Part shown: positions 11,380-61,300 of the stretch, one piece after another
How the letters are laid out: the number at the start of each line of letters is the position of its first letter
How positions within the stretch are numbered: position 1 is the first letter of the stretch
NCBI GenBank assembly: GCA_004431415.1
Contig: QPMI01000392.1
Coordinates: 21,168 to 85,167 of the forward strand
DNA from: Cyanophora paradoxa CCMP329
Taxonomy: Eukaryota > Plantae > Glaucophyta
Direction of reading: 5' to 3'
Length of the DNA: 64,000 nucleotides
Position numbers and translations under genes: made by a program
Notes under the pieces: model-generated
The model's input: the letters and a program-made list of their open reading frames with translations, nothing else
Database searches by the model: none
Told to the model about the DNA's origin: nothing

Positions 11380-12670
11380 CGGCAGCCCGTACGGCTCGCG
11401 GCGCCGGCTCGCAGCAGGGGCAGCCCGGTCGATTCCTTCAACAGCACGTGTGGGCCCCCATCCTTGTTTCCCCCCTCGCGCACCCCGCCCTCGCTCGCCC
11501 GGCCCCCCGTACGGCTCTCAGCGCTGGCTCGTAGTAGGGGCGGCCTGGTCGATTCCGGCAACGGCACGTGTACCCCCTCTCTCGCCCCCCTCGCGCCCCC
11601 CCGCCCTCGCTCACCCAGGCCCCCCGTACGGCTCGCAGCGCCGGCTCGCAGTAGGGGGCGGCCTGGTCGATTCCGGCAACGGTACGTGTACCCCCTCGCT
11701 CGTCCCCCTCGCGTCCCCCCGCCCTCGCTCACCCGGGCCCCCCGTACGGCTCGCAGCGCCGGCTCGCAGTAGGGGCGGCCCGGTCGATTCCGGCAACGGC
11801 ACGTGTACCCCCGCTATCTCGCCTTTCTCACTTGTCGCTCATTGTCGCCGCGTCCCATCCTCTTGATCTTGTGGATTGACCAAGCGTAGCTTTCGGCCAG
11901 GCGGGCTATCAGGGGCGGGGCCCGGTCCGTCCGTACCCCCGCTCTCCCCCTCCCCCCACCTGCGCCCCGCGCCCCGCGTCTCGTCTCACAGAGCGCCCGC
12001 AGGACTCGGCCCCGCGGCCGTCGAGGGGGTACAGGCGCCGTAGCCGGAATCGACCCGGCGGGCTATCAGGGGCGGGGCCCGGTCCGTCCGTACCCCCCGC
12101 TCCCCCCTCCCCGGACCTGCGCCGCGCGCCCCGCGTCTCGTCTCACAGAGCGCCCGCAGGACTCGGCCCCGCCGCGAGGGTACAGGCCGTGCCGATCGAC
12201 CGGGGCTATCAGGCGGGCCGGTCGTCCGTACCCGCTCCCCCACCATGCCCGCGCCCGCGTCGTCCACAGAGCGCCGCAGATCGCCGCGGCTCGAGGGTAC
12301 AGGCCTAGCGATCGACCGGCGGCTATCAGGGGCGGGGCCCGGTCCGTCCGTACCCCCGCTCTCCCCCTCCCCCACCTGCGCCGCGCGCCCCGCGTCTCGT
12401 CTCACAGAGCGCCCGCAGGACTCGGCCCCGCGGCCGTCGAGGGGGTACAGGCGCCGTAGCCGGAATCGACCCGGCGGGCTATCAGGGGCGGGGCCCGGTC
12501 CGTCCGTACCCCCCGCTCCCCCCCTCCCCGGACCTGCGCCGCGCGCCCCGCGTCTCGTCTCACAGAGCGCCCGCAGGACTCGGCCCCGCGGCCGTCGAGG
12601 GGGTACAGGCGCCGTAGCCGGAATCGACCAGGCGGGCTATCAAGGGCGGGGCCCGGTCCGTCCGTCCCCT
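11380..12670. repeat. Bipartite array 1: 4 A units (+), then ~5 B units (-)
   Basis: A cores at 11427, 11547, 11665, 11782 (~118-bp period); reverse B cores at 12026, 12443, 12600 plus two deletion-riddled units. Confidence 0.95.
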
Positions 12671-13115
12671 TTTCCGAGAGCTCGCCGAGAGCCCGGGCTG
12701 CGGCAGGCCTTTGCGTTTGCACGCACGGTGCCGAGCGGGTCCCCTTCTTCCCAGCCCCGGCCGCCGGCAAAGCAAGACGGCGGACGAGGGGCCGGGCGCC
12801 GGCAGGCCCGTGGCGGCAGCGGGGGCCGCCGCAGCCGCTCCGCAGCGGACGCGGCCGGCGACGGGCGCGGACGAAATCGCTCTCGCCGATGAAATATGTA
12901 TCAGTGATCTATTAATTGCGCAAAGAAATCAGACTTGAATTCGGGATTCGAATTGCGCCGTGTCAATGCAAAGCCTTGCGGGGGGAAGAGGAAGAGGCGG
13001 GGGCGCTGGGGCATCCCGGACAGGGTACCAAGGGTAGATGATCACGATGGGCGCGCGGGCGCAACGGGTAGACGATACCGGAGGGCGGCGCGCGCGCTCG
13101 AATAAAATAACGCTC

Positions 13116-13162
13116 GGGATTCTCGGCGCCCGGGATTCCCGTCTGCCGCGTCGACAAAAGGG
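13116..13162 (+). promoter_or_regulatory. GGGATTCCC + TATA-like promoter
   Basis: GGGATTCTC 13116, GGGATTCCC 13132, GACAAAAGGG 13153, upstream of ATG 13269. Confidence 0.55.
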
Positions 13163-13268
13163 AGAGAGGCGGCCGAGCTCGGCACATTTGCGTGGTCGAA
13201 ACACGTCGACAACGACGGCAGCCACAGCACCTACAGCCGCAACCCGTAAACCCTTTTTGCAGAGAGCC

Positions 13269-15340: not shown

Positions 15341-15386
<46 letters not shown>
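15341..15386. repeat. poly-C tract (46 nt)
   Basis: Direct reading; lies between convergent genes. Confidence 0.9.
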
Positions 15387-18198: not shown

Positions 18199-18424
18199 CT
18201 CAAACGCTACCTCTACCCCAGCGGGGTGCACGCGCGAGCGCGCGAAATTCGTGCTCGATTCCTGGCTCCAACGGCGGTAGGGGGTATATACAAAGTCGAA
18301 ATACCCGTTGGGCCACCTCTGACCGGCCGCGGGCAGGCGCGGGATTTGAATTCGAACCGGACTAGTACTCTTGCTGCCGCAGTGCCGGCTACCCCCGGCC
18401 CCCCGGCCTCCCCCCCCGCGCGTT

Positions 18425-18486: not shown

Positions 18487-18545
18487 TTGGATCGGACCCC
18501 GAGCACTTGGACAGTTGATGCGGGTACGGACCGCGGCCGGCGACG

Positions 18546-23649: not shown

Positions 23650-23767
23650 CGAATCTAGGGCTCTACAAGGGCTAGAGAAGGCTCCGGAGGGCCTTTGCGC
23701 GGCGTGGCGTGCTGTTGAAATTCGATGGTGCGCCGGTGCACCATCGAAACGTTGCAAACTGGCCCCC
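23650..23767 (-). repeat. Dispersed repeat copy 2 (inverted), 11-6-11 site at 23721-23748
   Basis: TTCGATGGTGC-GCCGGT-GCACCATCGAA, the reverse complement of copy 1. Confidence 0.9.
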
Positions 23768-24714
23768 AAAAAACGCTGTATGCGGGGCGCCCGCGGCCGC
23801 CGGTTGCGAGCCGACGGCCTCGTGAGCGCTGGAGCTCCCGAGTCGCTAGAGGAGCCTGTCCTTCCGACCCGGCGACCTTGGCATGTAGCTCTCGTCCGCG
23901 GCCGAGCGGCACCACCGTGGCACGGCCAGCGCGACGCCTCTGCGCCGTCCATGTAGCTCCAGGACCAGCTGCGCGTTCCGAGGACCGGCCGGGCGGTTCA
24001 GGAGACGCCCCGGCGCGGAGCGCGCCTCGAACAGGTGCGATGCGCGCGGCTCGCGCCCGCGAGGGCCGGCCGGCGGGATGCCGGCGCCGGTCGTCTAAGC
24101 CGAGCGCACCGGGAGCCGGCGCCCCACGCCGGCCGGCGCCCCGCTCCGCCTAGCTATGGACCGCCGCCGCGCCGCGGCCGCGCCGCGCGCACCGCCACAC
24201 GCATCCGCCGACCAGCCGGGCCGCCCGCGCAAGCAGAGGGCTCGTTCCGCGCCAGCGCGGGCGGGGCGCTCATCCTCCGGGGCGCAGGGCGGCGGGGCGG
24301 CGCCGGGAGCGCAGCGCGCTGGCATGTGCGGGGGCGAGCAGCTGCAGCGAGCGCGCCCGCGCCCGCGCTGGCGCGGTCCGGGCGCCTCGCTCTCCTGCCG
24401 CGCCGCCGGGGCCGCCGCGCCTCGAGCCCGGCTCGCCAGCCTCGCCCCCCGCAGGGCGCGTCGAGCGAGGCTCGGCCGGCGCGCCTCTTTTCGGCGGCCG
24501 CCGTCTCCCGGCGTCGTCGCACGCCCCGGGCGCGGGCCGCCCCGCGTTGCGCAGCCGCGAGGCGCATCTCGGCTGCAGCGCAGGCCTAGGCGTCGCGGCC
24601 GGTCCCTGGTGCGGCTTGCGTACCCCCCGCCCCTCCTTTTCCCCCCGCCCCCGCCCGGGCCCTGCCGCCGACATCCCCCTCGCTTGTTCGGCGGCGCGTA
24701 CCCTCTCAATCTCG

Positions 24715-27700
24715 CAGCGCCGGCTCGCAGAAGGGGCGGCCTGGTCGATTCCGGCTACGGCGTGTGCATCCCCCCCCCAAGCCTCCCGCCCCTCTCCCGC
24801 CCCCCCGCCCTCGCTCACCCTGCCCCCCGTGCGGCCGGCAGCAGCAGGCTCGCGGTAGGGGCGGGCTGGTCGATTCCGGCTACGGCGTGTGTACCCCCCT
24901 AAGCCGCCCCCCGCCCCTCCCTTGCCCCCCGCCCTCGCTCACCCTGCCCCCCCGTGCGGCCGGCAGCAGCTGGCTCGCAGTAGGGGCGGCCTGGTCGATT
25001 CCGGCTACGGCGTGTGTACCCCCACTGAGCCTCCCGTCCCTCCCTCGCCCCCCCGCCCTCGCTCACCCTGCCCCCCGTGCGGCCGGCAGCAGCAGGCTCG
25101 CGGTAGGGGCGGCCTGGTCGATTCCGGCTACGGCGTGTGTACCCCCCTAAGCCGCCCCCCGCCCCTCCCTTGCCCCCCCGCCCTCGCTCACCCTGCCCCC
25201 CGTGCGGCCGGCAGCAGCAGGCTCGCGGTAGGGGCGGGCTGGTCGATTCCGGCTACGGCGTGTGTACCCCCCTAAGCCGCCCCCCGCCCCTCCCTTGCCC
25301 CCCGCCCTCGCTCACCCTGCCCCCCGTGCGGCCGGCAGCAGCTGGCTCGCAGTAGGGGCGGCCTGGTCGATTCCGGCTACGGCGTGTGTACCCCCACTGA
25401 GCCTCCCGTCCCTCCCTCGCCCCCCCGCCCTCGCTCACCCTGCCCCCCGTGCGGCCCGCGGCAGCTGGCTCGCGGTAGGGGCGGGCTGGTCGATTCCGGC
25501 TACGGCGTGTGTACCCCCCACTGAGCCTCCCGCCCCTCCCTTGCCCCCCCGCCCTCGCTCACCCTGCCCCCCGTGCGGCCCGCGGCAGCTGGCTCGCGGT
25601 AGGGGCGGGCTGGTCGATTCCGGCTACGGCGTGTGTACCCCCCACTGAGCCTCCCGCCCCTCCCTTGCCCCCCCGCCCTCGCTCACCCTGCCCCCCGTGC
25701 GGCCCGCGGCAGCTGGCTCGCAGTAGGGGCGGGCTGGTCGATTCCGGCTACGGCGTGTGTACCCCCCACTGAGCCTCCCGCCCCTCCCTTGCCCCCCCGC
25801 CCTCGCTCACCCTGTCCCCCGTGCGGCCGGCAGCAGCTGGCTCGCAGTAGGGGCGGGCTGGTCGATTCCGGCTACGGCGTGTGTACCCCCCATTGAGCCT
25901 CCCGTCCCTCCCTTGCCCCCCCGCCCTCGCTCACCCTGCCCCCCGTGCGGCCGGCAGCAGCTGGCTCGCAGTAGGGGCGGGCTGGTCGATTCCGGCTACG
26001 GCGTGTGTACCCCCCATTGAGCCTCCCGTCCCTCCCTTGCCCCCCCGCCCTCGCTCACCCTGCCCCCCGTGCGGCCGGCAGCAGCTGGCTCGCAGTAGGG
26101 GCGGGCTGGTCGATTCCGGCTACGGCGTGTGTACCCCTTAGGCCTCTCGCCCCCCCCTCGTGCACCCCCGCCCTCGCACGCCCTCGCTGCCTCTTCTCTT
26201 GAGGGTCTCACCGAAGAGCCCCCGGGCCCGCCCAGGGGTACAGGCGCCGTAGCCGGAATCGACCAGGCGGGCTATCAGGGGGCGAGGCTCGGTCCGCCCG
26301 TACCCCCCACTCTGCCCGCTCCCCGCGACCGCCGCTCGCCCCGTCTCACCGAAGAGCCCCCGGGCCCGCCCAGGGGTACAGACGCCGTAGCCGGAATCGA
26401 CCAGGCGGGCTATCAGGGGCGAGGCTCGGTCCGTCCGTACCCCCCACTCTGCCCGCTCCCGCCGCTCGTTCCGTCTCGCCGAAGAGCTCACGGGCCCGCC
26501 CAGGGGTACAGGCGCCGTAGCCGGAATCGACCAGGCGGGCTATCAGGGGCGAGGCTCGGTCCGTCCGTACCCCCCACTCCGCCCGCTCCCGCCGCTCGCC
26601 CCGTCTCAACCGAAGAGCTCACGGGCTTGCCCAGGGGTACAGGCGCCGTAGCCGGAATCGACCAGGCGGGCCATCAGGGGGCGAGGCTCGGTCCGGCCGC
26701 ACCCCCCCACTCTGCCCGCCCCCCGCCGCTCGCCCCGTCTCACCGAAGAACCCCCGGGCCCGCCCAGGGGTACAGGCGCCGTAGCCGGAATCGACCAGGC
26801 GGGCTATCAGGGGGCGAGGCTCGGTCCGCCCGTACCCCCCACTCTGCCCGCTCCCCGCGACCGCCGCTCGCCCCGTCTCACCGAAGAGCCCCCGGGCCCG
26901 CCCAGGGGTACAGGCGCCGTAGCCGGAATCGACCAGGCGGGCCATCAGGGGCGAGGCTCGGTCCGTCTGTACCCCCCACTCTGCCCACTCCCGCCGCTCG
27001 TTCCGTCTCGCCGAAGAGCTCACGGGCCCGCCCAGGGGTACAGGCGCCGTAGCCGGAATCGACCAGGCGGGCTATCAGGGGCGAGGCTCGGTCCGTCCGT
27101 ACCCCCCACTCTGCCCGCTCCCCGCGGCCGCCGCTCGCCCCGTCTCGCCGACGAGCCCACGGGCTTGCCCAGGGGTACAGGCGCCGTAGCCGGAATCGAC
27201 CAGGCGGGCTATCAGGGGGCGAGGCTCGGTCCGTCCGTACCCCCCACTCTGCCCGCTCCCCGCGACCGCCGCTCGCCCCGTCTCACCGAAGAGCCCTCGG
27301 GCCCGCCCAGGGGTACAGGCGCCGTAGCCGGAATCGACCAGGCGGGCCATCAGGGGCGAGGCTCGGTCCGTCCGTACCCCCCACTCTGCCCGCTCCCGCC
27401 GCTCGTTCCGTCTCGCCGAAGAGCTCACGGGCCCGCCCAGGGGTACAGGCGCCGTAGCCGGAATCGACCAGGCGGGCCATAAGCGGCGGGCCCGGTTCGT
27501 CCGTACCCCCGCTCTCCCAGCACCCTCTGGCCGCTCGCCGCGTCTCACCGAGGGCTCGCGGGCCCGCCCAGGGGTACAGGCGCCGTAGCCGGAATCGACC
27601 AGGCGGGCTATCAGGGGCGAGGCTCGGTCCGTCCGTACCCCCCACTCTGCCCGCTCCCCGCGGCCGCCGCTCGCCCCGTCTCACCGAAGAGCCCCCGGGC

Positions 27701-28300
27701 CTGCCCAGGGGTACAGGCGCCGTAGCCGGAATCAACCAGGCGGGCTATCAGGGGGCGAGGCTCGGTCCGGCCGTACCCCCCACTCTGCCCGCTCCCCGCC
27801 GCTCGCCCCGTCTCACCAAAGAGCTCACGGGCCCGCCCAGGGGTACAGGCACCGTAGCCGGAATCGACCAGGCGGGCTATCAGGGGGCGAGGCTCGGTCC
27901 GCCCGTACCCCCCACTCTGCCCGCTCCCCGCCGCTCGCCCCGTCTCACCGAAGAGCCCCCGGGCCTGCCCAGGGGTACAGGCGCCGTAGCCGGAATCGAC
28001 CAGGCGGGCCATAAGCGGCGGGCCCGGTCCGTCCGTACCCCCCACTCTGCCCGCTCCCCGCGTCCGCAAACTGCCGGATGTCCTCCGCCCCGTCTCACCG
28101 AAGAACCCCCGGGCCTGCCCAGGGGTACAGGCGCCGTAGCCGGAATCGACCAGGCGGGCCATAAGCGGCGGGCCCGGTCCGTCCGTACCCCCCACTCTGC
28201 CCGCTCCCCGCGTCCGCAGCTCGCCCTGTCTCACCGAAGAGCCCCCGGGCCCCGCCCAGGGTTACAGGCGCCGTAGCCGGAATCGACCAGGCGGGCTTCG
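24715..28300. repeat. Bipartite array 2: 12 A units (+, ~124 bp), then 16 B units (-, ~130-150 bp)
   Basis: A cores 24742-26137; reverse B cores 26235-28288. Confidence 0.97.
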
Positions 28301-28568
28301 AGGGGCGAGGCCCGGCCCCCTTCCGTACCCCCCGCCGCCCCCGCTCCCCAAGCATATCCTTCCTCTCTCTTTCCACCCCTTTCGTCCCCCTGCCCCCCTC
28401 CCCCCCCTCTTTCCCTCCCCCCCCCCTCCCCCTATCTCCATCCCCCCCCCCCCCCCCCTCGTCTCGATCCGGCCCTCGGCCGCGAGGGCGCGCGGCCCGG
28501 TTCAATTTCTTGTAACACGCATCCCACAAGCTCGCTTGCCTACCCCCCCGCGCTCTCCGGGCCGGGGC

Positions 28569-29674
28569 CTACTGCTTCCCGCCGACCCCCATCGCGGCAA
28601 AGAGGGCGAGGGGCACGCCGAGGCCGCGGTGCTGCCCGCCGCGCGGCCCGATGCGCTCGGGGCGCATCGCGAGGGCGGGCGCCTTGTTCTCGTCGACCCA
28701 GCGGACGCAGAGGTCGCGCCCCGAGGCCCGCCCCGCCCGCTGCACCGCGACGCCGTTGGGCCCCGGGAGGCGCTCGCCCGCGCCAAAGATCCGCTCGGGG
28801 AAAAAGACCAGGTGCGCCGGCGAGCGCGGGTGCGGCACGCAGCGCTCCGGGTCCGAGCGGGACTCGTGCAGGCGGCGGAGGAACCAGGCGACGGCCTCGG
28901 CCGAGACGCGCGGGTCGCCCGTCGCCGGCGGCGCCCCGCCGGCGGCCCGCCTCCCGTCGGCCGCGTCGCGCAGCGCCCTGGCCTCTTGCGCCTCGCGCGC
29001 CTCGGAGGCGAGGCGGGCGGCAAGGGCGTCCAGGCGGGCGTCGGCGGCGAACCCGCCGCGCACGACGGCGGCGAGCTCGGCCGGCCCGAGCCCCGCGACG
29101 GCCCCGGCGAGCCCCTCGACGGCCTCGGCCCCCTCGGCCGGGGCGGAGCCCCCGCGGCGGCCGCGGCGGCCAGCAGGCGGCGCGCCCGCTCCCCCAGGTA
29201 CGCCTCCGGGTGGAGCCGCAGGATCCCCGTCCGCTCCGGGCGGTCCCCCCACGCGAGGCGGCAGGAGAGGGCGACGAGGGCGCACAGGTTGGCGAGGTCG
29301 GCCGCCTCGCGGGCCTGGGCGCGGCCCCAGCGGTGCCCGCCCTCGGGCGAGTACCCCTCGCCGTACGCCGCCCAGAGGGGCGCGGGGTCGGCCCCGCCGG
29401 CGGCCGCCGCCGCCTCCGAGTCGTCCCAGCAGGCGTCGCTGGGCGCGAGCTCCACCTTGGACGCCCAGCGGGCCCCGCAGGCGATGCGCGCCTCGGCGTA
29501 GACGCGCTCGTCGCGGCTGCGCATCGTGGTCCGCCCCCGCCGGGCCCCGCCCTCGCCCGCACCGCCGGCGTCTTGAAGGCGCGCACGCGGGCCCCAGGGC
29601 GGCGGCGGCGTGGGCCACGAGCCCCGCGGCGAGGCGGGCGGCGAGGCGCCCGAGGTCCCCGCGCTCCGCCCCGC

Positions 29675-29706
<32 letters not shown>

Positions 29707-32700
29707 CGGTCGGCCGGCCGCGCCGCCGGCTCCAGCGCGAGCAGCTCGGCCGCCTCGACGAGCGGCGCCCGCCGGTGCGCGGCAAAGAGGCGCCCCTCGC
29801 GCGCCGCCTCGCCAACCCGCCGCGCCGCCGCCGCGTCGGGGTCCGGGAGGGGCGAGAGGATGGCCGACGGGGTCACGGGCGGCTCGCAGCCGGCGGCGAG
29901 GAGGAGGAGGGCGGCGCTGCGGCGCGAGTGGGCCTCGTCGGGGGCGTCGGGGAGGATGTTGCGCCCGCCATCCTGGCCCCGCACGTGCGCCACCGTCTCC
30001 ATGTGCGCCAGAAAGGCGGCCCCGTAGCCGCGCAGCGCCGCGTGGTGCGCGTCCCGGGCCCGCAGGGCGAGGCGGAGCTCGGCGGGCCCGACCTCCTCCT
30101 CCCGCAGGCGGTAGTCGGCGGCGACGCGGCCCAGGCGGTACCCGCGCCGCTCCGCGTCGGCGACGCCGCCGGCGGCGTCGTCCACGTCGCCCCCGAGGCC
30201 GTGCATCGCCTCTTGCACGCGCCCCTCGCGCCCCGGCGCGAGGGGCGGCGCCGCGGCGTGCGGGAGGACGATCTCGATCTCGAGGGCCCGCTCCGCGGCC
30301 CACTTGGCCTCGGCCTGCAGCGCCTCGTCCCACGCGGGCTGCGCGCCGCCCGGGAGGAAGACGCCGCGGGCGCCGGCGGCGAGCATGCGCATGTGGACGG
30401 CCACCAGCGGGTCGGCCCGCGAGGCCCGCAGCACCGCCAGCTTGTGCGCCTGCACGCGCAGCGCCGCCCGCATCTCGTGCGAGGCGAGGGCGCCGGCGAG
30501 CCCGCGGCGGCCCCAGGTCTCCTCCAGGGCCCGCTCCCGCGCCGCCAGGATCGCCTCCGGGTCCGTCTCCCCGGGGTCGCCGCCCTCGCCCCCGCGCCCC
30601 TCTTCCTCGGCCGCCTTTTCGTCCTCCTCCTGACCGCCGCCGCCGTCGCCGACGCAGAGGATGACGCGGTCGCTGCGGATGCAGCGGACGCGGCCGGCGA
30701 GCTGCCAGAGCTGCACGACGCTCCCCGTGCGGCCCGACTCGGCGATGACGAGGACGTCGTACGGGTGCTCGGGGTCCGTGTAGTCGGCCCCCTGGTGGAT
30801 GGCGTAGTTGTACGCAAAGAGCCGCACCTCGCGGCAGACGTGCCCCTTGTCCAGCGCCCGCGCCCGCTCCTCGGCGCGGGCGTCGGCGTAGACGTAGAGG
30901 TCGCGCTCGCCGCCGCCGCGCAGGCCCGGGTGGCCGCGGACGGCGCCCATCGTGCGGAAGAGGGTGCGGCGGTCCGAGCTGGCGACGGCGACGCGGCGGC
31001 CGCCGAGGAGGAGCGCCGCCACGATGTCCCCCGCCATCCCCAGGGGGTACGCGAGCGCCTCGCGGCGCGCGGCGGGGCCCCGCGGGGCGGGGCGCAGGGT
31101 GTAGGAGACGACGCGGGCGGCGCCGGGCGCGGCCGGCTCCGGGTGGCGCAGGGCGAGGTAGTAGTCGACGTCGTGCTGGCAGAGGTCGGCGTCGGAGACG
31201 AGGACGATGGAGGCCTCGCGCAGGAGGCGCCCCAGGCGCGCCAGGGCCTGGTTCTGGCGCGCCTCCGGCGCCAGCGTCTCCGAGAGGACGGCCGTCACGA
31301 TCGCCTTGGCCCCCTCGTCGAGGATCACGACGGGAAAGACCCCGTCGAAGCGCCGGACCGACTCGACGGTGCTGAGGAGCGCGGCGGCGTCGGGCGCCCC
31401 GTCCCGCACGTCGCGGTACGAGACCCACCGCGCCACCGTCGCCCACTCGGGGTCCCGCTGAATCTCGGGCGCGTGCAGCCGCCCCGCGACGAGGTAGAGG
31501 ATGGAGCGCTGCCCCTCGGCGAAGCGGACGCCGAAGCGGGCCGGGTCGGCCACGATCGCGCGGGAGATCGAGACGCAGGCGCGCGTCTTGCCGTCCCCCA
31601 TGCCCCCCCGCAGGAAGAGGGTGCGCGCCTGCCCCTCGGGGCCCTCGAGCTCGCGGGCGATGCGCGCCCCGTCGACGTAGCGCCGGTTCGGCCCCTCGCC
31701 CCCGGCGTCGTCGTCGATCCCCAGCCACGCCGCCTCCAGGTCGGGCCGCCCCGCCGGCGGCGCCAGCGGCCTCCCGAGGCTCGGGAGCGGGACGCGGGCC
31801 CAGAGGGCCGCCTGCTCGGGCGCCACCTCCAGGGGGGTCGGCCCGTCCGGGGAGCCGGCGGGGGCCGCCAGCCGCTCCTCGAGGTGCGCGGCCAGCCCCG
31901 CCACGAACTTCTGGCGCGCCGCCGACATGGTCGGCTGGGCCGCCCGCGGCCCCGTCGCCCCCAGCAGGCCCGTCGACGCGGGGAGGAGGCCGGCGGCGAC
32001 GGCGGCGCCGACGGTGGCGCGGTGCACGGCCCGCTGCACGGCCGAGATCGACGAGGTCCAGGCGCGCCCCAGGCGGACCTCGGGCGCCGCCTTGGGGCCC
32101 GGGCCCGGGCCCGAGCCGGCGGCTCCGGCGGCGGCCGCCGCCTCCGCCGCCTTCGCCTCCTCGCAGGCGTCGCAGGCGTGCGCGCGGGCCGTCCCCTCGA
32201 GGGCGTCGACGCGCACGAGGCCGCGGCGGTCGCCGCAGAGGGCGCAGGGGGCCTTGACGCGGTACTCGACGGTGTCGGTGCCCAGGTCGGCGCGGGCCGG
32301 GTACGGCGCCGCCGCCGGGTCCGGGAGCGCGAGGGGCGGGAGCTCGCGGGCGGCGCGGGCGGCGGAGATCGCGGCGTTGGCCGCCTCGGAGAGGAGCGGG
32401 AGCCAGCGGCCGAGGGCCTCGGCGGCCTCGGGCGGCGGCGGGGCGGGGAGCCCCTCGGCAAAGGCGAGGGCGCCCCGCAGCGGCCGCTCGGCGCACGCGA
32501 GGCTGAAGCAGTGGGCGGAGCCCGCCAGCACGCCCCACGCCCCAAACGGGGCGACGGCGAGGCGCGTGTTCTGGCTGCTGTGGACGCGCCCGTGGAGGCA
32601 GGGCCCGCCGGCGGGGCGCGAGACGTAGGCCTCGACCTCACCGCCCTGTCGCTCCCACTCCCGGCCGCTCTCGGCGGGGTAGACGGCGCGGGCGAGGCGG

Positions 32701-34052
32701 AGGCGGTCCGGCGGCACCTCGGGCCCGCTCGGATCGACCGCGGCCGCCGCGGCGGCGGCCGGGTCGGTCGCGCCCGGCGCGCCGCGGCGGGGGCGCTTGG
32801 GCCCGCGGCCGCGCGGCCGACCGCCCTCTTCGCGATCGCCGGCGCCCTCTGCCCTCCGCTTGGGGGCGGCCCGGCGGGCGAGGTCGGCGCCGGCGGGGCG
32901 CGGGAGGGCCGGGAGGTCGAGGAAGACGGCCTCGGCGAGGGCGGAGCGGAGCCAGGCGTAGAAGTCGCGGTTCCAGGCGACGATGGCGGGGTCGGCCCGC
33001 GCCGTGCAGAGGTCGACGGCGTCGCCGCGGGCGGGATCGACGAGGGCGGCCCGGTCGGCGATCGCCACCGGGTAGCGCAGCGTCCAGCCGTGGTAGTGCG
33101 TGTCCTCCCGCATCCCGCAGTTCGGGTTCCACGTGCTCACGTCCACGGCCCCCGCCTCGAGCAGGGCGCCGGCGAGCGCGGGCCCGAGCTTGCGCTCCAT
33201 CCAGGGCTTCACGACGGCCGCGAGGGCGTCGGCGCCGCGCCACGAGGACCGCCTCTTGTCGACCATGCCGGGCACGGCGCGCGTGCCGGCCGACCGCGAG
33301 GCCCGCTTCCAGTCGCCCGGGAAGCGGGCGCGGGCGCGGGCGAGCCTGAGCTCCCACTGGCGCAGGTCCTCGGCGTCGTAGAGGCGGGCGGCCTCGGAGC
33401 GGGCGATCAGCTCGCGCTCCATCACGACGACGTGGAACCCCTTGAGGCCGCTGAAGACGACGAGGGCGCGCAGGCCGGACGCCTCGCAGGCGGCGGCGAG
33501 GTCGTGGGCGAGGCGGGCGACGCGGGCCACGTCGGGGAGGCGGCGGCAGTACTCGCCCAGCGTGCGGGCCTCGGCCAGGACGCCGCAGAGGTACTCTTTC
33601 TTGCACTCGGCCCGCTGCGCGTCGCCCACCGCCCCCTCGCAGACCTCGGCCGGCACCTCGACGTGCACGTCGAGGTCAAAGGCGCCCAGAAAGGCGAGCT
33701 TGGCGGCGCGGCCGTCGCGCAGCCGGACGGCCGGCTGGAGGCAGACTTGGGCGACGTTGCGGGGGCGGGACGCCGACGGGGCGCCCTGCACGCCGGCGAG
33801 GGCGTCGAGGGGGACCCGCCGCCACGAGGTGCGGTAGATGGCGTCCCGGTGCGCCCCGGGGCGCCCGATCTTGACAAAGAGGGCGGCGCTGGCAGGGTCG
33901 ACGTCCGAGGCGGGCGGCACCGAGGGCTGCGCGCGGGGGGGGGCGACGCCCGCCGGCGCCGCCGCCCCGTCCCTGGCGCGCTTCGGCGCGGGGACGGGCC
34001 CCGCGGCGCCCCTCGGCCCGGCGATGCAGAGCGGCCCCTCGGCAAGTTCCAT
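28569..34052 (-). CDS. AEP primase + Zn finger + UL9-like superfamily-2 helicase (viral-type replication / origin-binding protein)
   Basis: AEP motifs FDLD, FSGLKGFH, VDVSTW; CLHGRVHSSQN..HCFSLAC Zn finger; UL9-like motifs RGGMGDGKT, STVESV, VILDEG, SDADL, YNYAIHQGADY, WQLAGRVR. Compensating frameshifts ~29150-29590. Confidence 0.88.
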
Positions 34053-34425
34053 TCCGTTCTCGCTTTTTCCCTGGCGCAGGCGAGGAATGGCGATCAACGC
34101 CCCTGCTCCCCGCGGGGCGGGCCCCTTTTCTTGGCGGAAACGAACGGGAATCCCGCGCCGCGGCCGGCCGTACCCCCGACCTCCGCGGCCGGTGCCGCTC
34201 CCCGCGCGATCCGAGCCGGCGGGGCGCGGCTCCCCGCCCGCCGCGTACCCCGGCGAGGTGCCCCGAGCCCCTCCCCTCCCCGCCCCCGTCCCCGCCCCGC
34301 ACGCCCGCCGCGTCCGACCATAAAAGGGCGCCCCTGGGCGGGGGGTAGACGAGGAAGAGCGAGGGGTGCGCGACCGCAGTACCCCGTCCGCTCGAACTCG
34401 GTCGACGCAGGGTTCTCCCTACCCC

Positions 34426-35100
34426 ATGAGCGCCCGCGGGCACCGGGCCACCCCGTACCCCAGGCGCTTCGGCGGGGAGCGGGACCCGCTCCGCGCGCGG
34501 AGCGGGCACGGTCTGCACGAGTACGACGCGGCGCGCGGCTCCATCCGCGTGCCTCTGCCCGTGGCGCGCGGCAAGTCCTGGGTCGAGACCGAGGTCGTCG
34601 AGGCGCCGGCGGGGGGCGACCCGCGCACGGACCCCGCCGCCCTCGCCCGCTTCGTCTCCCTCGGCCACCTCGCCGCCCTCACCTGCTGGTGCATGCGGAA
34701 CGCGTCGAGCGCCGAGCTGCCGGCCGGCGCGGCCGGCGCCGACGAGAGGGACCCGTGCGCGGTCTGCCTGGAGCCGCACGCGCGGCCCGTCCGCCTCGCC
34801 TGCAACCACGTCTTCTGCCTCCACTGCCTCGCCTCGCTGCCCCCCGCCGACTTTCGCTGCCCCCTCTGCCGCGCCGCCCCCGGCGCCGGCATCACCTTTC
34901 TCGCCGGCGAGCACGCGGCGCGGTGGCGGGCGGACCCGCAGGGCTACGGGCGGCGCCTCGACGAGGGGGCGGCGGCGCTCCCCGCCTGGGCGCCGCAGGC
35001 GTTTCGCGATCGCTACCGCTCGGCCGCGTGGCTCGTCCCCCCCGAGCTGCACTCGGGCCCTCGCCCCCGGCCCGCCCCCGCGGCCGCTCACGATCAGTGA
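34426..35100 (+). CDS. C3HC4 RING finger protein (putative E3 ligase)
   Basis: CAVC..LACNHVFCLHC..CPLCR; ATAAAAGGG 34320; GGGAATCCC 34146 in the intergenic region shared with the divergent primase gene. Confidence 0.85.
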   Translation: MSARGHRATPYPRRFGGERDPLRARSGHGLHEYDAARGSIRVPLPVARGKSWVETEVVEAPAGGDPRTDPAALARFVSLGHLAALTCWCMRNASSAELPAGAAGADERDPCAVCLEPHARPVRLACNHVFCLHCLASLPPADFRCPLCRAAPGAGITFLAGEHAARWRADPQGYGRRLDEGAAALPAWAPQAFRDRYRSAAWLVPPELHSGPRPRPAPAAAHDQ

Positions 35101-35153
35101 TCCTCCCATCTTCCCCCTTGCAATATTAATTGATTGGAACGTGCATGTGCTCT

Positions 35154-35790
35154 CGGTGAGACGAGGCGAGGGCGCGGCAGGGGGCGGGGGGGGCGGGGGT
35201 ACGGCCGAACCGAGCCCCGCCGCTTATGGCCCGCCTGGTCGATTCCGGCTACGGCGCCTGTACCCCTGCGCGGACCCGCGAGCTCGCGGTGAGACGAGGC
35301 GAGGGCGCGGCGGGGGGCGGGGGGGGCGGGGGTACGGCCGAACCGAGCCCCGCCGCTTATGGCCCGCCTGGTCGATTCCGGCTACGGCGCCTGTACCCCT
35401 GGGCGGGCCCGTGAGCTCTTCGGTGAGACGAGGTGAGCGGCGGGGGGCGGGGCGAGCGGGGGGTACGGACGGACCGGGCCCACCGCTTATGGCCCGCCTG
35501 GGCAATTCCACCGATGTCCTGCGGGTCCTCGCTGAGAGGATGCGGGGGGCCAGGGGTAGTCGAAGAGGGATGGAAAAGGGCAGCGTTAGCAGGGGTACAC
35601 ACGCCGTAGCCGGAATCGACCAGGCCGCCCCTACTGCGCGCCAGCTGCAGCGAGCCGAACGGGCCGCAGGGCGAGCGAGGGCGAGCGCGAGGGGCGTACG
35701 AGAATCGGAGAGGGCGCGATTGAGGGGTACACACGCCGTAGCCGGAATCGACCAGGCCGCCCCTACTGCGAGCCAGATGCAGCGAGCCGT
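35154..35790. repeat. Bipartite array 3: 2 B units + truncated unit (+), then 2 A units (-)
   Basis: B cores 35237, 35370; reverse A cores 35592, 35724. Confidence 0.93.
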
Positions 35791-36027
35791 ACGGGGTGCT
35801 CGCCGCGGGTGCGCGAGGCCGGGGGTGCGCGAGGGGGTCCCCCGAACGGGCCCGCTCGGGCGTGGCATCTGCCAGATCTAGAGCAGCGGGCGGCCGCCGG
35901 CCAACTCGCCACAGGCTCGGCGAGGCGTGACGCGACCTTGCGCTCGAGCTCTTTTCCCTGCGAGGGCTGGGCTTCACGTGAACGGGCCGGGAAGGATTGA
36001 GGGGGGTAGGGCGCAGCGGGCTCCGTC

Positions 36028-42615: not shown

Positions 42616-42648
<33 letters not shown>

Positions 42649-42675
42649 CGGGGGGGGGAGGGGGGGGGGTCCCGA

Positions 42676-44522: not shown

Positions 44523-44812
44523 GGCCGGTTCCGGGTAGGGTGCCGCTACCCCCCTCAGGGTCGTTCCTGCATTCCCCCGCCCCCGTCCCGAATCAGAAGG
44601 GGCGGGGCGGCAGAGGGGGTCTAGGGGGGAGGGGGCAGGGGCGCGGGGCGGCTCTGACCTCGCGACGGGTCGATTCGGGTTACGGTGCCGCTACCCCCCC
44701 TGAGGTCGGTTCCGCTGGGGCTCTGAAGCATGCCGAACCGCTTGAGCGAGCCGCCCCTCGCGAGGTGCCGCGGCGCAGGGAGGGCGTACACGGCCCGTAC
44801 CCGGAATCCGCC
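44523..44812. repeat. Degenerate sixth array: two B-like cores (+) and one A-like core (-)
   Basis: 44523 (23/30 match), 44668 (25/30), reverse 44783-44812 (23/30). Confidence 0.7.
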
Positions 44813-53943: not shown

Positions 53944-56268
53944 TCAGTCGCCTTTGGCGCTGGCCTCGCCGGCGCCTTCGGCGGCCCCTTCCTCGCCCGA
54001 CGCCTCGCTCTGCTCGTCCCCGTCCCCGTCCCGTCGCTCTCGCCGGCCTCCCGAAGCTCCAGCACCGAGCCGTCAAAGACAAAGCCCTTGGCGCGCTGCA
54101 CCTCTTCCGCGAGCCGCTCCCGGATCTGGTCCGCCCCTCTTTCGTGCAGCCCTTCAGGAGCGGGAGGCAGCTGACAAAGTCGACGACCGATATGCCGCTC
54201 CCGCAGACGCGCGCAAGGCCAGGGAACCTCGTGAGCGTCTCTCCCAGCGCGCGGAGGTCGTTGTAGATCTCGGACTGCGCGAGCCTCGAGTGAGCGACGT
54301 CGAAAGCTCGCCGGGCCGGGTACGCGTGCTCGCGGCTGCAGCTAGGGGCCCGCCCCCGCACCCTCCTCCCGCAAGGGAATTCGAAGCGACCTCACCTTTT
54401 GGGCGCTGACCTCGAGGCGAAAGCCGGCCGCCTGGAGGATGGCGTCGTACTTGGCGCAGAGGTGCTCGGCGCGGTAGGCGCCCCAGAGGCGGCGGTTGCG
54501 GCCGTAGCGCTCCGTGTAGGCCTGGTGGACGGCGAGGACGGAGCAGGCGATGAGCATGATGCAGCGGATCCGCTCCCGCCCGCCTCTTCGATGCGGTTCA
54601 GGAGGGCCGCGCGGGCCTCCGGGCTGGCGTCGATCTGGCGCCCGATGAGCCCCGGGTCGATCCCCGCCTCGAGCCCAAAGTCGTAGGCCTCCAGCGACTC
54701 TGGGTCGAGCCCGCCCTCGCCCTCGCCCCCGCCCCCGGCGGGGCCCTCGGCGAGCTCGTCGGCGTCGTCCGCGCCGCCCTCGGCCCGCTCCGCCTCGGCG
54801 AGGGCCTTGCGCCAGCGCTCCGCGAGCTCCTTGCCCCGCGGGTCCGGCGAGCCGGCGCGCGAGCCGTCCTCCTCGCTGCCCGAGCCGCCGCCGCCGCCCC
54901 GCCGCCCTCGGGCCCGGCCTCGATGGCGAGGGGGCCGCCGCCGCCTTGCCCTTGCCCTTGCCCTTGCCGCCGCCGCCGCTGCTGCCGCCGCCGCCGCCGC
55001 CGCTCCCGGCCGAGCTGCCCCCTCCGACTCGGAGCGCGCGTCCTCGTCCTTGGGGCGCGTGTACGCGTTGTAGAGGACGCGGATGAGCTTGTCCGACTCC
55101 CACTCCTTGCGGCGGTCGCGCCCGGCGCCCCACTTGCTCCGCGCCGCCCGCCGCGCCGGCTTCGAGGGGCCGGCGCCCGAGCCGGACCCGGGGCCGGCGC
55201 CCTGCGCCGAGGCCGACGCCGACGCCGCCTCGGGGTCGGGGGAGCTCGCCGGCTTGGGCGGGCGCAGCGTCTTGCGCCGCTCCAGCGCCCGCTCCTCGGC
55301 GCCGTCCTCCCCCTCTTCCTGCTCGGCCGCCGACTCGCCCCGCGCCGGGCCCTTGGTCGACGTCGCGGCGCGCTTGGCGCGCGATCGCGAGGGCCGGCGG
55401 CCGGCCCCTCCTCCTCCTTCTCCTCCCCTCCTCCTCGGCGGCCGGGCCCGGGCCCGAGGCGGCGCCCTTTTCCTTGCGCTTCTTGCCGCCCTGGGCCTTG
55501 GCGCCCGCGGCCGGCTCCCCCGGGCCAGGGGGGCGGCCGCCGGCGCCGGCGGCTGGGCGGCGGGCGCGGATCCGTCGGACGGGGCGGCGGCTCCGGGGCC
55601 AGAGCCAGAGCCCGAGCTCGGGCCCGCCCCGGCGGGGGCCGCGGGGGCCGGGGGCGGGCCGCCGCCGCCGGCGGCGGCGGGGCGCGGGCCTCGGCGGCGG
55701 CCGCCTGGAAGCGCTCGAGGGCGTACGTGAGCGCCGTGCGGAGGCAGAGGTCGCCGGAGATCCACGAGGCGGCAAAGGCGGCGTCGTCGATGTAGGCGAG
55801 AAAGGAAAAGAGGGCGTCGATGCGGGAGCTGCAGACGAGGCCCGAGGCGGCCGGGTGGGGTCGCCGCAGCTGGGGCAGGTGAAGAGGGGCGGCGAGGCGC
55901 CGCCCTCGGCGCTGACGGAGAGGAGGGTGAGGGCGCAGCTGAGGCAGACGAACGAGCCGGTCGAGTTGAACTTGAGGTCGTCGAGGGCGGGGCGCGGGTG
56001 CGCGTCGAGGGCCTCGTTGACGGACGAGGCGCCGGTCTTGGCGAGGAGGCGGGCGGCGGCGCAGGAGAGGAGGATCGGGGGGAGGATGCGCTCCGACTTG
56101 CAGCGGGCGCAGGCGGGGCGGCAGGAGAGGAGCGGGTCCCGCCCAGGCTGATGAACGCGGGAGGCTGACCTTGGCCGGCCGCGAGTCGAGGGGCGGGCAG
56201 CCGGACGCGCCGCCCGCCGCGCCCCGCGGGCTCGTCACCTGGGCCCCCGACGCCGGCTGCGACGCCAT
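53944..56268 (-). CDS. Cys-pair / low-complexity / helical-domain protein, paralog of 7688-10505 (several apparent frameshifts)
   Basis: CARC..CLSC..CPSC; RCIMLIACSVL..LWGAYR..; LGETLTRFPGLARV; intron from 54395; TATA ~56352. Confidence 0.6.
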
Positions 56269-56559
56269 CGCCGGAGGCAGGGGGGAAGGAGGAGGACCCC
56301 GGCAGAAGGGGCCTGCGGGTCTCGTCGGGAGGATCGGGGGGCCGGCGACTCCTATATATGCCCCATCGGGGCCCGCCGGGATGGGCAAAAGCGGGCAGAC
56401 GGGGCGGCGGGGGTGAGGGGAGGGGTACGGTGGGAAGGACGCGTGCCGGGGCGGGGCGGCGGCCGGCGGTGGGCGATGGCCCCGCGGGCCCCAACGACGG
56501 CGCGCGGGCCCCGCGGTGGGCGCCGCGAAACGGCGCCCGCCGAGAGTCGTCCGGTTTTG

Positions 56560-58400
56560 ACCCGCCCGGTCGATTCCGGCTACGGCGCCTGTACCCCTGG
56601 GGCGGCCCGCGAGCCCGCGGTGAGACGAGGCGAGCGGCGGGGGGCGGGGCGAGCGGGGGTACGGACGGACCGGGCCCGCCGCTTATGGCCCGCCTGGTCG
56701 ATTCCGGCTACGGCGCCTGTACCCCTGGGCGGGCCGGCAAGCACGTCGGTGAGACGAGGCGAGCGGCCAGAGGGTGCAGGGGAGCGGGGTACGGACGAAC
56801 CGGGCCCCGCCGCTTATCGCCCGCCTGGTCGATTCCGGCTACGGCGCCTGTACCCTGGGCCGGCCCGCGAGCCCTCGGTGAGACGAGGCGAGCGGCCAGA
56901 GGGTGCAGGGTACGGACGAACCGGGCCCGCCGCTTATGGCCCGCCTGGTCGATTCCGGCTACGGCGCCTGTACCCCTGGCGGGCCCGTGAGCTCTTCGGT
57001 GAGACGCGGCGAGCGGCCAGAGGGTGCGGGGAAGCAGGGGTACGGACGGACCGAGCCCCGTCGCTTATGGCCCGCCTGGTCGATTCCGGCTACGGCGCCT
57101 GTACCCCTGGGCGGACCGCGAGCTCTCGATGAGACGAGGCGAGCGGCCAGAGGGTGCGGGGGAAGCGGGGTACGGAGGAACCGAGCCCCGCCGCTTATCG
57201 CCCGCCTGGTCGATTCCGGCTACGGCGCCTGTACCCCTGGGCGGGCCCGCGAGCTCTCGATGAGACGAGGCGACCGGCCAGAGGGTGCGGGGAAGCGGGG
57301 GTACGGACGAACCGAGCCCCGCCGCTTATCGCCCGCCTGGTCGATTCCGGCTACGGCACCTGTACCCCTGGGCGGGCCCGCGAGCCCTCGGTGAGACGAG
57401 GCGAGCGGCCAGAGAGTGCGGGGGAAGCGGGGGTACGGACGAACCGAGCCCCGCCGCTTATGGCCCGCCTGGTCGATTCCGGCTACGGCGCCTGTACCCC
57501 TGGGCGGGCCCGCGAGCACGTCGGTGAGACGAGGCGGCGGTGCGCGAACTCTCTGTGAGATGGGGGCGAGCGGTCGGAGGGTGCGGAAGCGCGCGAAGGG
57601 GTGGGTCGAGAGGAAAGGCAAACGACAGCGTTAGCAGGGGTACACGCACCGTAGCCGGAATCGACCAGGCCGCCCCTACTGCGGGCCAGCGCCGCGGGCC
57701 GGACGGGGCGCCGAGTGAGCGAGGGCGGGGCGCGGAGAGGGCGCGTTGTGGGGTACACACGCCGTAGCCGGAATCGACCAGGCCGCCCCTACTGCGAGCC
57801 TGCTGCTGCGGGTCGAACGGGGCGCAGGGTGAGCGAGGGCGGGGCCACGCGAGGGGTCGAGAAAGGGGGGCACACACGCCGTAGCCGGAATCGACCAGGC
57901 CGCCCCTACTGAGAGCCAGCTGCTGCGGGCCGGACGGGCCGCCGAGTGAGCGAGGGCGGGGGGCGGAGAAGGCGCGTTGGGGGGTACACACGCCGTTGCC
58001 GGAATCGACCAGGCCGCCCCTACTGAGAGCCAGCTGCGCGGGCCGTACGGGCCGCCGAGTGTGCGGGGGCGGGGGGCGCTCGAAGGGGGCGAGAGGCCAA
58101 GGGGGGTACACACGCCGTTGCCGGAATCGACCAGGCCGCCCCTACTGCGAGCCTGCTGCTTCGGGCCGTACGGGTCGTCGAGTGAGCGAGGGAGGGGCGC
58201 TCGAAGGGGGCGAGAGACCTAGGGGGGTACACACAGCGTAGCCGGAATCGACCAGGCCGCCCCTACTGAGAGCCTGCTGCTGCGGGCCGTACGGGCCGCC
58301 GAGTGAGCGAGGGCGGGGGCGCTCGAGGGGAGGGGGGGGGGGCGAGAGACCTAGGGGGGTACACACAGCGTAGCCGGAATCGACCAGGCCGCCCCTACTG
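56560..58400. repeat. Bipartite array 4: 8 B units (+), then 7 A units (-)
   Basis: B cores 56568-57500; reverse A cores 57637-58385; degenerate core ~58490. Confidence 0.96.
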
Positions 58401-59537
58401 CGGGCCAGCGCTGCGATCGCTCTGGGTGAGCGATGGCGGGCGCGGACAAGGCGAGGAGCGCGGGCCGGTGGGGGAGGGAAAAAGAGCGGGGTGGACCGGC
58501 CGTACCCGGAATCGGCCCGATCGCTCTTCCGCGCCCCCGCGTGGGGTACGAGGCTCGTACGCGCCCGCCCAGCAGCGCTAGCGCCCCTCGAGCGCCGAGC
58601 CTGCCGAGGCGATGAGCACCGCACCGAGCTCGAGAGCTCGACGGGAAGAAAGGGAACCGGTCGAGGGGGTGCGCGGGCGCACTCCCCACGAGGCCCCGGG
58701 CGCTCTTGGCTCGCCCAGCGGGCCGGCTGCCGAGGGCTTGGCGTGGGCGGGGAAGAGGATCCAGAGGGGGCGCTCGAAGCGGGCGAGGCGCCGGGCCGCG
58801 CTCACCCTCGCGATGGACGCCCCGCCGCCGCTTGCGCCGCCGCCGCCGCAGGGCATCGGCCGGCTCCCCGTGCCGACCGACGTCCCGGCGCCCGGCCTCG
58901 CCAGGCCGCTGCCGCGCGTCCCGCCACCCGAGCAGGCGGCCCCGAAGCGCACCAAGCGATCCGCTCTGGGCGACGGGGCGCCGCGGCCCGGCGCCGAGGC
59001 CTGGGCCGGTTGAGCGCCGGCCGGCTCCGGCGGGGCGGGCCCGGCCGGGGCGCGCGGGCGCGCGTAGGTATGAGCCGCTTTGGATTCGAACTGTACGCAG
59101 GAAGAGCTCGCGGGCGCGCAGAAACTTAATCCGGCGTCGGCGCCCTGCGGGGCGAGGGACAGAGGCACGTCAGCCGCAGCGGACTCCGGGATCGAAAGTT
59201 GCATGCGGGCCGCGGCCGCCGAGCAGGCTAGGACGAAAGGGAGGCGCACGAGCCGCGCGGGTAGCTGGAACCGCCCGAGGCGTGGCTCTCTCGGGAGAGC
59301 AGAAGGGAGGCTCGCGGCTCGGGCGCGACAGAGCGCCGCACGAGCAGCTCGTGGTCCGCTGCTCTCTGTGCGTGGGATCGCTGTGGTTTTCTCTGTGTCT
59401 GTTTTTTTGCGACCAAGTGTACCCCGCAGATTCGCCGCAGCAGTGTTGCAAGCTGCAGCCAGCTGCCGCCGCAGCCCCCCGCGCGCGTTCTCGCAACGCT
59501 GGCCAGCAGAGCCTTCATGCGCATGCGCAGCTCTTTC

Positions 59538-59695
59538 GGGGGGCCAGTTTGCAACGTTCTGATGGTGCACCGGCGCACCATCGAATTTCAACAGCACGCC
59601 GCGTCGCGCGCGTGCCCTCTGGCGCAGTCCATAGCGCCTGTAGGGCTCGAAAATCGCGTCGCCGCCCGCCCAGCTCGTGCTCGGGTCGAGCGCAG
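59538..59695 (+). repeat. Dispersed repeat copy 3, 11-6-11 site at 59558-59585
   Basis: TCTGATGGTGC-ACCGGC-GCACCATCGAA (2 changes in the left arm); ~155 bp homologous to copy 1. Confidence 0.9.
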
Positions 59696-60184
59696 TCGAC
59701 GAGGCCACGGCCACTGCTAGCTATTGATCTCCAGCGGCCCTCTGACGCTTCTACGACCCGACAACCCCACGGATGCGTGTCCCGTCGCACAGGCTGGGCG
59801 TCACGGCGACCCTCGGCGGCCGCGGCGCTCGTGCGGCTACGCAGATGCAGCCGGCGCCCAAGGCGCACTTGTGGAGGTTCTCCGAGATTTAAACGCGCGC
59901 GCCGCAGCGCGGCCGGCCCCGGCGCGCCGCCGGCGCGCATCCGGCCATCGATCGGGCACGCCGCGTGCGGTGCGCAGCGTGCGGACCCGCGCGCTTCTCC
60001 GCCACACCCTCGCGAAGCGCTACGCGGGGTGGAGTGCGGGCGCGCCGGTTCCAGCGAGCAAGACGATCACCGAGTCGGCCGGCACCGCGCTCGGTCCGCC
60101 CCTCGCGGCTGCAGCGAGCCCCGCCTCCTTTTCCTCGGCCCGCTGCCACGCTCCGCGCGCCGCGGCGGCCCCTCGTGCGCCCCC

Positions 60185-61300
60185 GCCTTCGCTCACTCGG
60201 CAGCCCGTACGGCCCGCGGCAGCTGGCTCGCAGTAGGGGCGGCCTGGTCGATTCCGGCTACGGTGTGTGTACCCCCCTAGGCCTCTCGCCCCCTTCGAGC
60301 GCCCCCGCCCCCCGCTCACTCGGCGGCCCGTGCGGCCCGCAGCAGCTGGCTCGCAGTAGGGGCGGCCTGGTCGATTCCGGCTACGGTGTGTGTACCCCTT
60401 AGGCCTCTCGCCCCCCTTCGAGCGCCCCCGCCCTCGCCCACTCGGCGGCCCGTACGGACCTGCAGCGCTGGCCCGCAGTAGGGGCGGCCTGGTCGATTCC
60501 GGCTACGGTGTGTGTACCCCCCAACGCGCCCTCTCCGCGCCCCGCCCTCGCTCACTCGGCGGCCCGTACAGATCGCAGCGCTGGCCCGCAGTAGGGCGGT
60601 CTGGTCGATTCCGGCTACGGCGTGTGTACCCCCTGCTGACGCTGTCATTTGCCTTTCCTCTCCACCCACCCCTTCGCGCGCTTCCGCACCCTCCGGCCGC
60701 GTGCCACCGTCTCACCGAGAGCTCCCGGTCCGCCCAGGGGTACAGGCGCCGTAGCCGGAATCGACCAGGCGGGCCATAAGCGGCGGGGCTCGGTTCGTCC
60801 GTACCCCCGCTCGTCCCGCCCCCCCGCCGCTCGCCTCGTCTTACGGACGGGGCGAGCGGGCCGTCCAGGGGTACAGGCGCCGTAGCCGGAATCGACCAGG
60901 CGGGCCATAAGCGGCGGGGCTCGGTCCGTCCGTACCCCCTCTTCCCCCGCCCCCCGCCGCTCGTCCCCGTCTCATCGAGAGCTCGTGGGCCCGCCCAGGG
61001 GTACAGGCGCCGTAGCCGGAATCGACCAGGCGGGCCATAAGCGGCGGGCTCGGTCCGTCCGTACCCCCGCTCTCCCCGCGCCCCCGCCGCCCGCCTCGTC
61101 TCACCGAGAGCTCTCGGACCCGTCCAGGGGTACGGGCACCGTAGCCGGAATCGACCAGGCGGGCGATAAGCGGCGGGGCTCGGTTCGTCCGTACCCCCGC
61201 TCTCCCTGCCCCCCTGCCGATCGCCTCGTCTCACCGAGAGCTCTCGGGCCCGTCCAGGGGCACCGGCGCCGTTGCCGGAATCGACCAGGCGGGCTATCTG
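60185..61300. repeat. Bipartite array 5: 4 A units (+), then 5 B units (-)
   Basis: A cores 60247, 60369, 60491, 60603; reverse B cores 60737-61286. Confidence 0.95.

Follow-up and report, generated by a model that had tools for sequence, protein, structure and literature searches.

The question raised by a 64,000-nt stretch of DNA from the glaucophyte alga Cyanophora paradoxa CCMP329 (assembly GCA_004431415.1, contig QPMI01000392.1, positions 21,168 to 85,167, forward strand; hereafter the window, with coordinates counted from its first letter) is what its five groups of opposed tandem arrays, all built around one short core, are for. The array pattern is real, highly non-random and rule-bound. 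The reading preferred here, at a probability of about 0.35, takes the arrays for oriented binding sites of an adjacent initiator, a putative AEP-type primase fused to a UL9-like helicase, in the manner of the homologous regions (hrs) of baculoviruses or of oriP of Epstein–Barr virus (EBV).

The 20-base core, GGTCGATTCCGGCTACGGCG, was counted on both strands of the window at up to three mismatches; 64 copies were found, the chance expectation in dinucleotide-preserving shuffles being 0.10 (largest value 2). Sixty-three of the 64 fall into five compact loci of 0.7–3.7 kb each; the remaining one (44668..44687, + strand, 3 mismatches, followed by a core-like tail) is solitary and degenerate and lies outside any array. 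With the decayed edge units added, the count of about 65 copies and the per-locus numbers given in the initial annotation of this DNA are reached. In 5/5 loci a block of plus-strand cores stands to the left of a block of minus-strand cores, so that the cores converge. One block consists of A units and the other of B units, as had been claimed; the A block is leftmost in loci 1, 2 and 5 and the B block in loci 3 and 4, which is the flip of locus polarity described before, and the prefixes of the two unit types and their TG and CC core variants agree with the units examined. Periods were called with Tandem Repeats Finder: A units, 112–125 bp; B units, 130–138 bp; higher-order periods, 248–268 bp and 405 bp.

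Locus 1 (cores at 11.5–12.6 kb, three on each strand): A block at 11364..11830 (+; three intact cores and one degenerate, period about 118 bp), B block at 11880..12700 (−; three intact cores and about two units with a decayed core, period 158 bp); its degenerate edge units are an A copy at 11427 and B-type flanks lacking an intact core at about 11893 and about 12310. Locus 2 (24.7–28.3 kb, 12 plus and 16 minus): A block at 24700..26190 (+; 12 cores, period 124 bp), B block at 26200..28350 (−; 16 cores, period 130–138 bp, with the 405-bp higher-order repeat). Locus 3 (35.2–35.75 kb, two and two): B block at 35149..35510 (+; two cores, period 133 bp), A block at 35560..35830 (−; two cores). Locus 4 (56.6–58.5 kb, eight and eight): B block at 56540..57560 (+; eight cores, period 131 bp), A block at 57630..58530 (−; seven cores and one degenerate edge copy). 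Locus 5 (60.2–61.3 kb, four plus and five minus): A block at 60169..60640 (+; four cores, period 112–123 bp), B block at 60700..61350 (−; five cores, period 130 bp). Decayed units are carried by the outer array edges generally; loci 2 and 5 also have, directly beyond their B edges, runs of G or C that are shorter than the long homopolymers of the window.

For the comparison of the unit types, six real units of A and six of B were paired, all read in one core orientation (36 pairs). Over a 33-bp core, reaching from three bases before the 20-mer through GTACCCC, A/B identity was 0.91 (range 0.88–0.94); it was 0.51 in the 45 bp upstream and 0.48 in the 30 bp downstream, shuffled flanks giving 0.53 ± 0.05. 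Since the flanks stand at shuffle level and the core at 0.91, A and B are regarded as unrelated units with the same 33-bp insert. A homology upstream of the core (GTRCGG...), suspected by eye, was dropped once its level was measured and found to be that of the shuffles. The core is an island of identity in two otherwise unrelated units, which fits a protein-binding site. The earlier statement that cores are more conserved than linkers holds for A against B (0.91 vs about 0.5) and is too simple within either class: about 100 bp of the A unit and about 78 bp of the B unit are nearly invariant across the per-locus consensuses, and the freely varying part comes to about 25–30 bp per unit. The 20-base core is mostly invariant in the consensus units of all five loci; the A consensuses of loci 1 and 5 have 1–3 differing positions within it. 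As read from the units, the 33-bp core is asymmetric, with palindromes of only 4 bp (TCGA, CCGG and GTAC). G-quadruplex motifs are denser in the arrays (4.4 vs 1.4 per kb); as a constant array feature they were rejected, the motif being missing from 3/10 blocks.

The candidate initiator is encoded by the primase-helicase gene (28572..34052, − strand; gene model P0003, 1775 aa, spliced near the 3' end). The open reading frame (ORF) at 28572-34418 (−) has 1,949 stop-free codons, or 1,827 when counted from its first ATG (34052); the EukProt gene model is 100% identical to the ORF product, the two agreeing over the first 1,489 residues. The AEP motifs FDLD and FSGLKGFH lie near 33455. Matches to AEP families were below threshold (E = 0.004–0.12; LigD_Prim-Pol in three proteins, DNA_primase_S in two of those three), and no match was obtained with the AEP profile in the PDB. 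The helicase core at 30408-31775 holds Walker A, Walker B and other motifs of SF2. The profile built from five paralogs matched four solved entries of UL9 from herpes simplex virus 1 (HSV-1; 9hgj, 9hgi, 9zgf and 9vjh, E = 5e-7 to 2e-6), the match being restricted to chain residues 81-238, in the helicase core. In Foldseek with a helicase structure model of low confidence (pLDDT 59), UL9 took ranks 1–4 (E = 7e-11 to 6e-10), above generic SF2 helicases; the ESM Atlas neighbours were Herpes_ori_bp (PF02399) clusters. Motifs, profile and Foldseek together bear out the earlier call of a UL9-like protein: the long ORF encodes a UL9-like SF2 helicase, joined to what is probably a primase of the AEP type.

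The C-terminal part of about 110 aa (at about 28572-28900) is conserved among the paralogs (about 31–66% identity there) and was modelled at pLDDT 81 and pTM 0.75. Nearly all matches of this model were winged-helix DNA binders; the best was TcpK bound to oriT DNA (Foldseek E = 0.03; VIA Z 6.6, root-mean-square deviation 3.4 Å, 92 residues), and the C-terminal domain of the replication initiator of a Staphylococcus aureus pathogenicity island (SaPI; 8tch_B residues 453-563, Z 5.0) was among them. The model weakly suggests that this domain is a winged helix, the usual DNA-binding fold. The RVKNL motif of UL9 was not seen in the C-terminus by eye.

The position of the arrays around the gene was examined likewise. 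Loci 2 and 3, the largest and the smallest, flank the primase-helicase gene and a RING-finger gene in mirror image: 12 A cores (+) and 16 B cores (−) on one side, two B cores (+) and two A cores (−) on the other. The primase-helicase gene touches the B block of locus 2 with its 3' end. The mirror is reversed in loci 4 and 5, where eight B (+) and eight A (−) positions are followed, after 1.65 kb, by four A (+) and five B (−). A 51-bp dyad element (11-bp perfect stem, 6-nt spacer) within a conserved segment of about 150 bp was found in three copies with 0–2 mismatches: 10656..10706 (+), 0.6 kb outside the A side of locus 1; 23709..23759 (− strand, inverted; 0 mismatches), 0.9 kb outside the A side of locus 2; and 59547..59597 (+; 2 mismatches), in the stretch that separates the A side of locus 4 from that of locus 5. 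Overall the distance from dyad to A side is 0.5–1 kb. The hairpin energy of the dyad is unremarkable (z −1.3 to −1.6), and the element has no similarity to the core.

Four things favour the binding-site reading: the core as an island of identity, the rule that blocks converge, the mirror-image placement of loci 2 and 3 around the gene, and a plausible DNA-binding domain in its product; the dyad element, kept at 0–2 mismatches near the A sides, was counted as further support. On this reading the initiator would dock on the 33-bp core through its predicted C-terminal winged helix, and the many oriented sites would concentrate it. Molecules loaded from the A and B blocks would face each other at the block junction, where they would either open the DNA, as at an origin, or hold or activate the element, as at a partition site or an enhancer, by analogy with baculovirus hrs and EBV oriP. 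The dyad, at its distance of 0.5–1 kb from the A sides, would serve as an additional element resembling the DS of oriP. The initial annotation had proposed iteron-type origins or partition sites; the UL9-like AEP gene, the predicted winged helix, the bracketing and the core island speak for this part, while neither an AT-rich element nor the expected tyrosine recombinase was found (no Pfam match to the latter in the 262 ORFs of the window, which an intron-split gene could escape).

Several results weigh against binding by this initiator. Three of the five loci do not adjoin its gene, loci 1, 4 and 5 lying 16–25 kb from it. The protein gave no match to Pfam Herpes_ori_bp (PF02399) at E <= 1, and a BFVD search with the C-terminal domain gave nothing at E <= 0.001; the winged-helix call is tentative because every Z is below 8, a range rated common. 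No AT-rich unwinding element was found when GC content was measured in the arrays and junctions; the array blocks have a GC content of 0.71–0.77 and the block junctions are likewise GC-rich. On the physical strand both blocks of a locus have the same G/C skew, which is negative in loci 1, 2 and 5 (−0.13 to −0.25) and positive in loci 3 and 4 (+0.10 to +0.20); the core is therefore flipped relative to a continuously skewed background, and a locus therefore also resembles one skewed minisatellite. Within-array gene conversion can also keep a core uniform. Finally, the unique contig over the junction of locus 2 had a depth of 75 and 86 in two DNA runs, and summed contig depths in these runs were 16,962 and 15,208 for the A core and 31,685 and 29,960 for the B core. 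The ratio, which is one of depth and not of copy number, hints at about 180–420 copies per unit type, vs about 28 A and about 36 B in the window, and suggests several hundred cores genome-wide; with about 63 cores here, most copies are therefore probably elsewhere.

Nearly as probable as binding by the initiator is that the arrays are a composite satellite or minisatellite of an ordinary kind in the host nucleus, perhaps as methylated heterochromatin, in which two repeat families were homogenised by unequal crossing-over and gene conversion and spread by segmental duplication, the primase-helicase being uninvolved. The head-to-tail arrays with higher-order periods of 248–405 bp, the decayed edge units and the single strand skew across both blocks of a locus speak for it. 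Four of the seven loose-end contexts tested are not present in the window; together with the depth excess and the several hundred copies that it suggests, this makes it probable that the repeats occur elsewhere in the genome. For the host, the excerpted account of its genome (712 contigs) gives a GC content of 67.6%, repeats at 29.4% and unknown repeats at 11.5% of the genome, and a genome more likely haploid (PMC6704402), and an excerpt of a second account reports giant-virus-derived regions and methylation of most C. paradoxa repeats (PMC12344493). A neutral satellite leaves unexplained why the same 33-bp core sits in two otherwise unrelated unit types, why both types meet head-on in 5/5 loci, and why a near-invariant core lies beside 25–30 bp that vary freely per unit. 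The initial annotation had held that flanking target-site duplications and a spread through the host chromosomes would mark a foldback transposon or a satellite; the former were not seen by eye, and the latter, in the form of occurrence elsewhere in the genome, is likely from contig depth.

A low probability is given to polar barriers or regulatory arrays for a host factor, that is, replication-fork or transcription barriers, insulators or promoters of flanking genes. Convergent polar sites are the layout of a fork trap, and locus 1 lies between two divergently oriented coding regions, the other loci being at gene ends; against this, no factor is known. Sequencing runs guessed to be RNA gave low contig depth over the arrays and patchy depth over the genes and are uninformative on expression.

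Less probable again is that each pair of facing blocks is a transposon of the foldback type, non-autonomous, moved by a machinery acting in trans and inserted either way round. Long inverted structures of tandem subrepeats are the hallmark of Foldback elements, and here too opposed blocks of tandem subrepeats occur, in both polarities and in loci that are each compact. The arms, however, are common over 33 bp only and are not inverted copies of each other beyond that; no conserved termini and no target-site duplications were seen by eye in the 300 bp outside either side of each locus, and Pfam found no transposase or recombinase in the 262 ORFs.

The regular 120–135 bp units, with a core resembling by eye the T-arm and acceptor end of a tRNA, had pointed to an RNA reading, in which the units are tandem genes of a small structured RNA or the arrays a cluster that yields small RNAs. 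It was rejected as highly improbable, since Rfam gave no match at gathering score, nor, for 1.8 kb of array sequence, at E <= 1, ARAGORN called no tRNA within the arrays, and folding z-scores were −0.07 to +1.17 for four units on both strands.

The arrays can be compared point by point with their nearest known counterparts. Baculovirus hrs are dispersed intergenic tandem arrays whose cores are imperfect palindromes of about 30 bp. The C. paradoxa loci share with them the dispersed tandem-array arrangement (here five loci with 63 cores in 50 kb, the 50 kb being only putatively one element), the varying copy number, a conserved core of about 30 bp within units that are less conserved, and the intergenic positions. 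Unlike hrs, the core is asymmetric and not a palindrome, symmetry being made by two opposed blocks; two unrelated unit types are used; and capsid, packaging or other viral hallmark genes were not found by Pfam among the 262 ORFs. EBV oriP is a single locus with direct repeats only, both parts of which carry the same EBNA1 site. An array of repeats of about 30 bp some 1 kb from a dyad is common to both systems, the dyad here being 0.5–1 kb from the A sides, whereas five loci are present in the window and the dyad is not similar to the core.

For HSV-1 the UL9 boxes of oriS and the domain layout of UL9 were taken from the excerpted text of PMC12543377. A UL9-like SF2 helicase core followed by a predicted C-terminal DNA-binding region, and opposed sites around a centre, are points of likeness. 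In contrast to oriS, which is short and palindromic and has 8-bp boxes and an AT-rich spacer, kilobase arrays with a GC-rich centre are found here; and in contrast to UL9, the C. paradoxa protein has a putative N-terminal AEP primase, a small predicted winged helix in place of the 316-residue UL9 C-terminal domain with RVKNL, and similarity confined to the helicase core.

Among iteron systems, SaPI is a bacterial island with short iterons around an AT-rich region, a primase/helicase-type initiator whose origin specificity is C-terminal, and repeats beside the initiator gene. The C-terminal model aligns to the SaPI initiator (PDB 8tch) over the segment given above, a weak match, and repeats adjoin the initiator gene in both cases. 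Iteron origins have repeated initiator-binding sites beside the initiator gene; loci 2 and 3, which bracket the candidate initiator gene, would be such sites if the protein binds them, and loci 1, 4 and 5 lie 16–25 kb away. Unlike iteron origins, the GC-rich arrays have no adjacent AT-rich unwinding element. As the core is no hr palindrome and the AT-rich element of iteron origins is missing, the arrays are described as a variant that may work alike rather than as a member of either class.

In an exhaustive HMMER search, 11 family matches were found in 1.84 billion representative proteins, which makes the initiator family unusually isolated. The ten relatives checked, on seven other contigs, and the window protein are all from Cyanophora paradoxa; at this search sensitivity the primase-helicase family appears lineage-restricted. 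A second gene model on another contig (tig00021535) is 98% identical to the window protein, and the region of this twin also holds the neighbouring 650-aa gene, seven gene models away. As the genome is more likely haploid and the 650-aa neighbour is shared, the twin is more likely a recent large duplication than an allele. The 650-aa ORF itself matched only its 98% twin, with no usable ESM Atlas match. Some paralogs are split into adjacent gene models or truncated (P0009/P0012 and P0008, tig00000540; P0006/P0007, tig00021536), and two share one contig; the family includes decayed and clustered copies. Outside the genome, the extended core gave 0 matches in JGI metagenomes and the primase-helicase peptide patterns 0 in IMG/VR; the 20-base core gave two single exact 20-mers in IMG/VR, in unrelated GC-rich sequence with no similarity beyond them, which were judged to be chance. 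A protein search with an ORF read through a B array, for gene models over arrays elsewhere, gave no match, and a literature search, supplements lying outside it, yielded no account of this element or of these repeats.

From the sum of these data a wider proposal may be framed, which we hold to be doubtful: that the C. paradoxa nucleus carries lineage-restricted self-replicating elements whose initiator, made up of AEP, UL9-like helicase and winged helix, binds specifically to a 33-bp site that is itself asymmetric; two unrelated repeat families set head-on, and not a palindrome, would then supply the symmetry. This would be a new eukaryotic origin or hr architecture, perhaps with an oriP-like dyad. 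Should the arrays be cis sites, they would be a rare eukaryotic nuclear case of a virus- or plasmid-type initiator beside its candidate origin, in a deep-branching alga (Glaucophyta) with almost undescribed mobile elements, and the C-terminal domain of about 110 residues and the 33-bp site would form a testable pair. Should they be plain satellites, an odd rule (two unrelated units, one core, always convergent) would be left for models of satellite evolution to explain.

Neighbouring genes: the RING-finger gene lies at 33894..35144 (+; RING ORF 34324-35097, Pfam) with a GT..AG intron at about 34258-34348, seen in contigs of a run guessed to be RNA; on its 3' side it runs up to locus 3, and exon 1 overlaps the 5' end of the primase-helicase gene, which is read from the opposite strand. 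Pfam recognised three domains only in the 262 ORFs: the RING finger, a marginal F-box (ORF 41359-42675, −) and a GIY-YIG nuclease (ORF 45766-46227, −; E = 1.5e-8), the last standing in the 3' portion of a coding stretch (45.7-51.4 kb) that looks as if it had several exons. A 337-bp segment (39863-40193 / 41538-41873) is 87% identical between two neighbouring minus-strand ORFs, one of them that with the marginal F-box, which are therefore paralogs; contigs from runs guessed to be RNA indicate a plus-strand GT..AG intron (about 41833-41929), in conflict with the minus-strand ORF. ARAGORN called a 90-nt tRNA-Ala(GGC) at 51994-52083 (+), which is doubtful because Rfam, searched at gathering score over the window, gave no tRNA at that place.

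The GC content of the window is a mosaic of 56–80%: islands of 56–63% GC at 1-6000, 18000-22000, 36000-41000 and 52000-54000 stand in a background of 72–80% and may be traces of insertions that differ in age. In a 60% GC island, a segment of about 1.07 kb is directly duplicated (36013-37074 / 38125-39204; 98% identity, 2.1 kb apart); both copies contain an ORF of about 240 aa for which Pfam gave no match. Long homopolymers are present at 7446-7478 (G33), 15341-15386 (C46) and 42616-42669 (G54).

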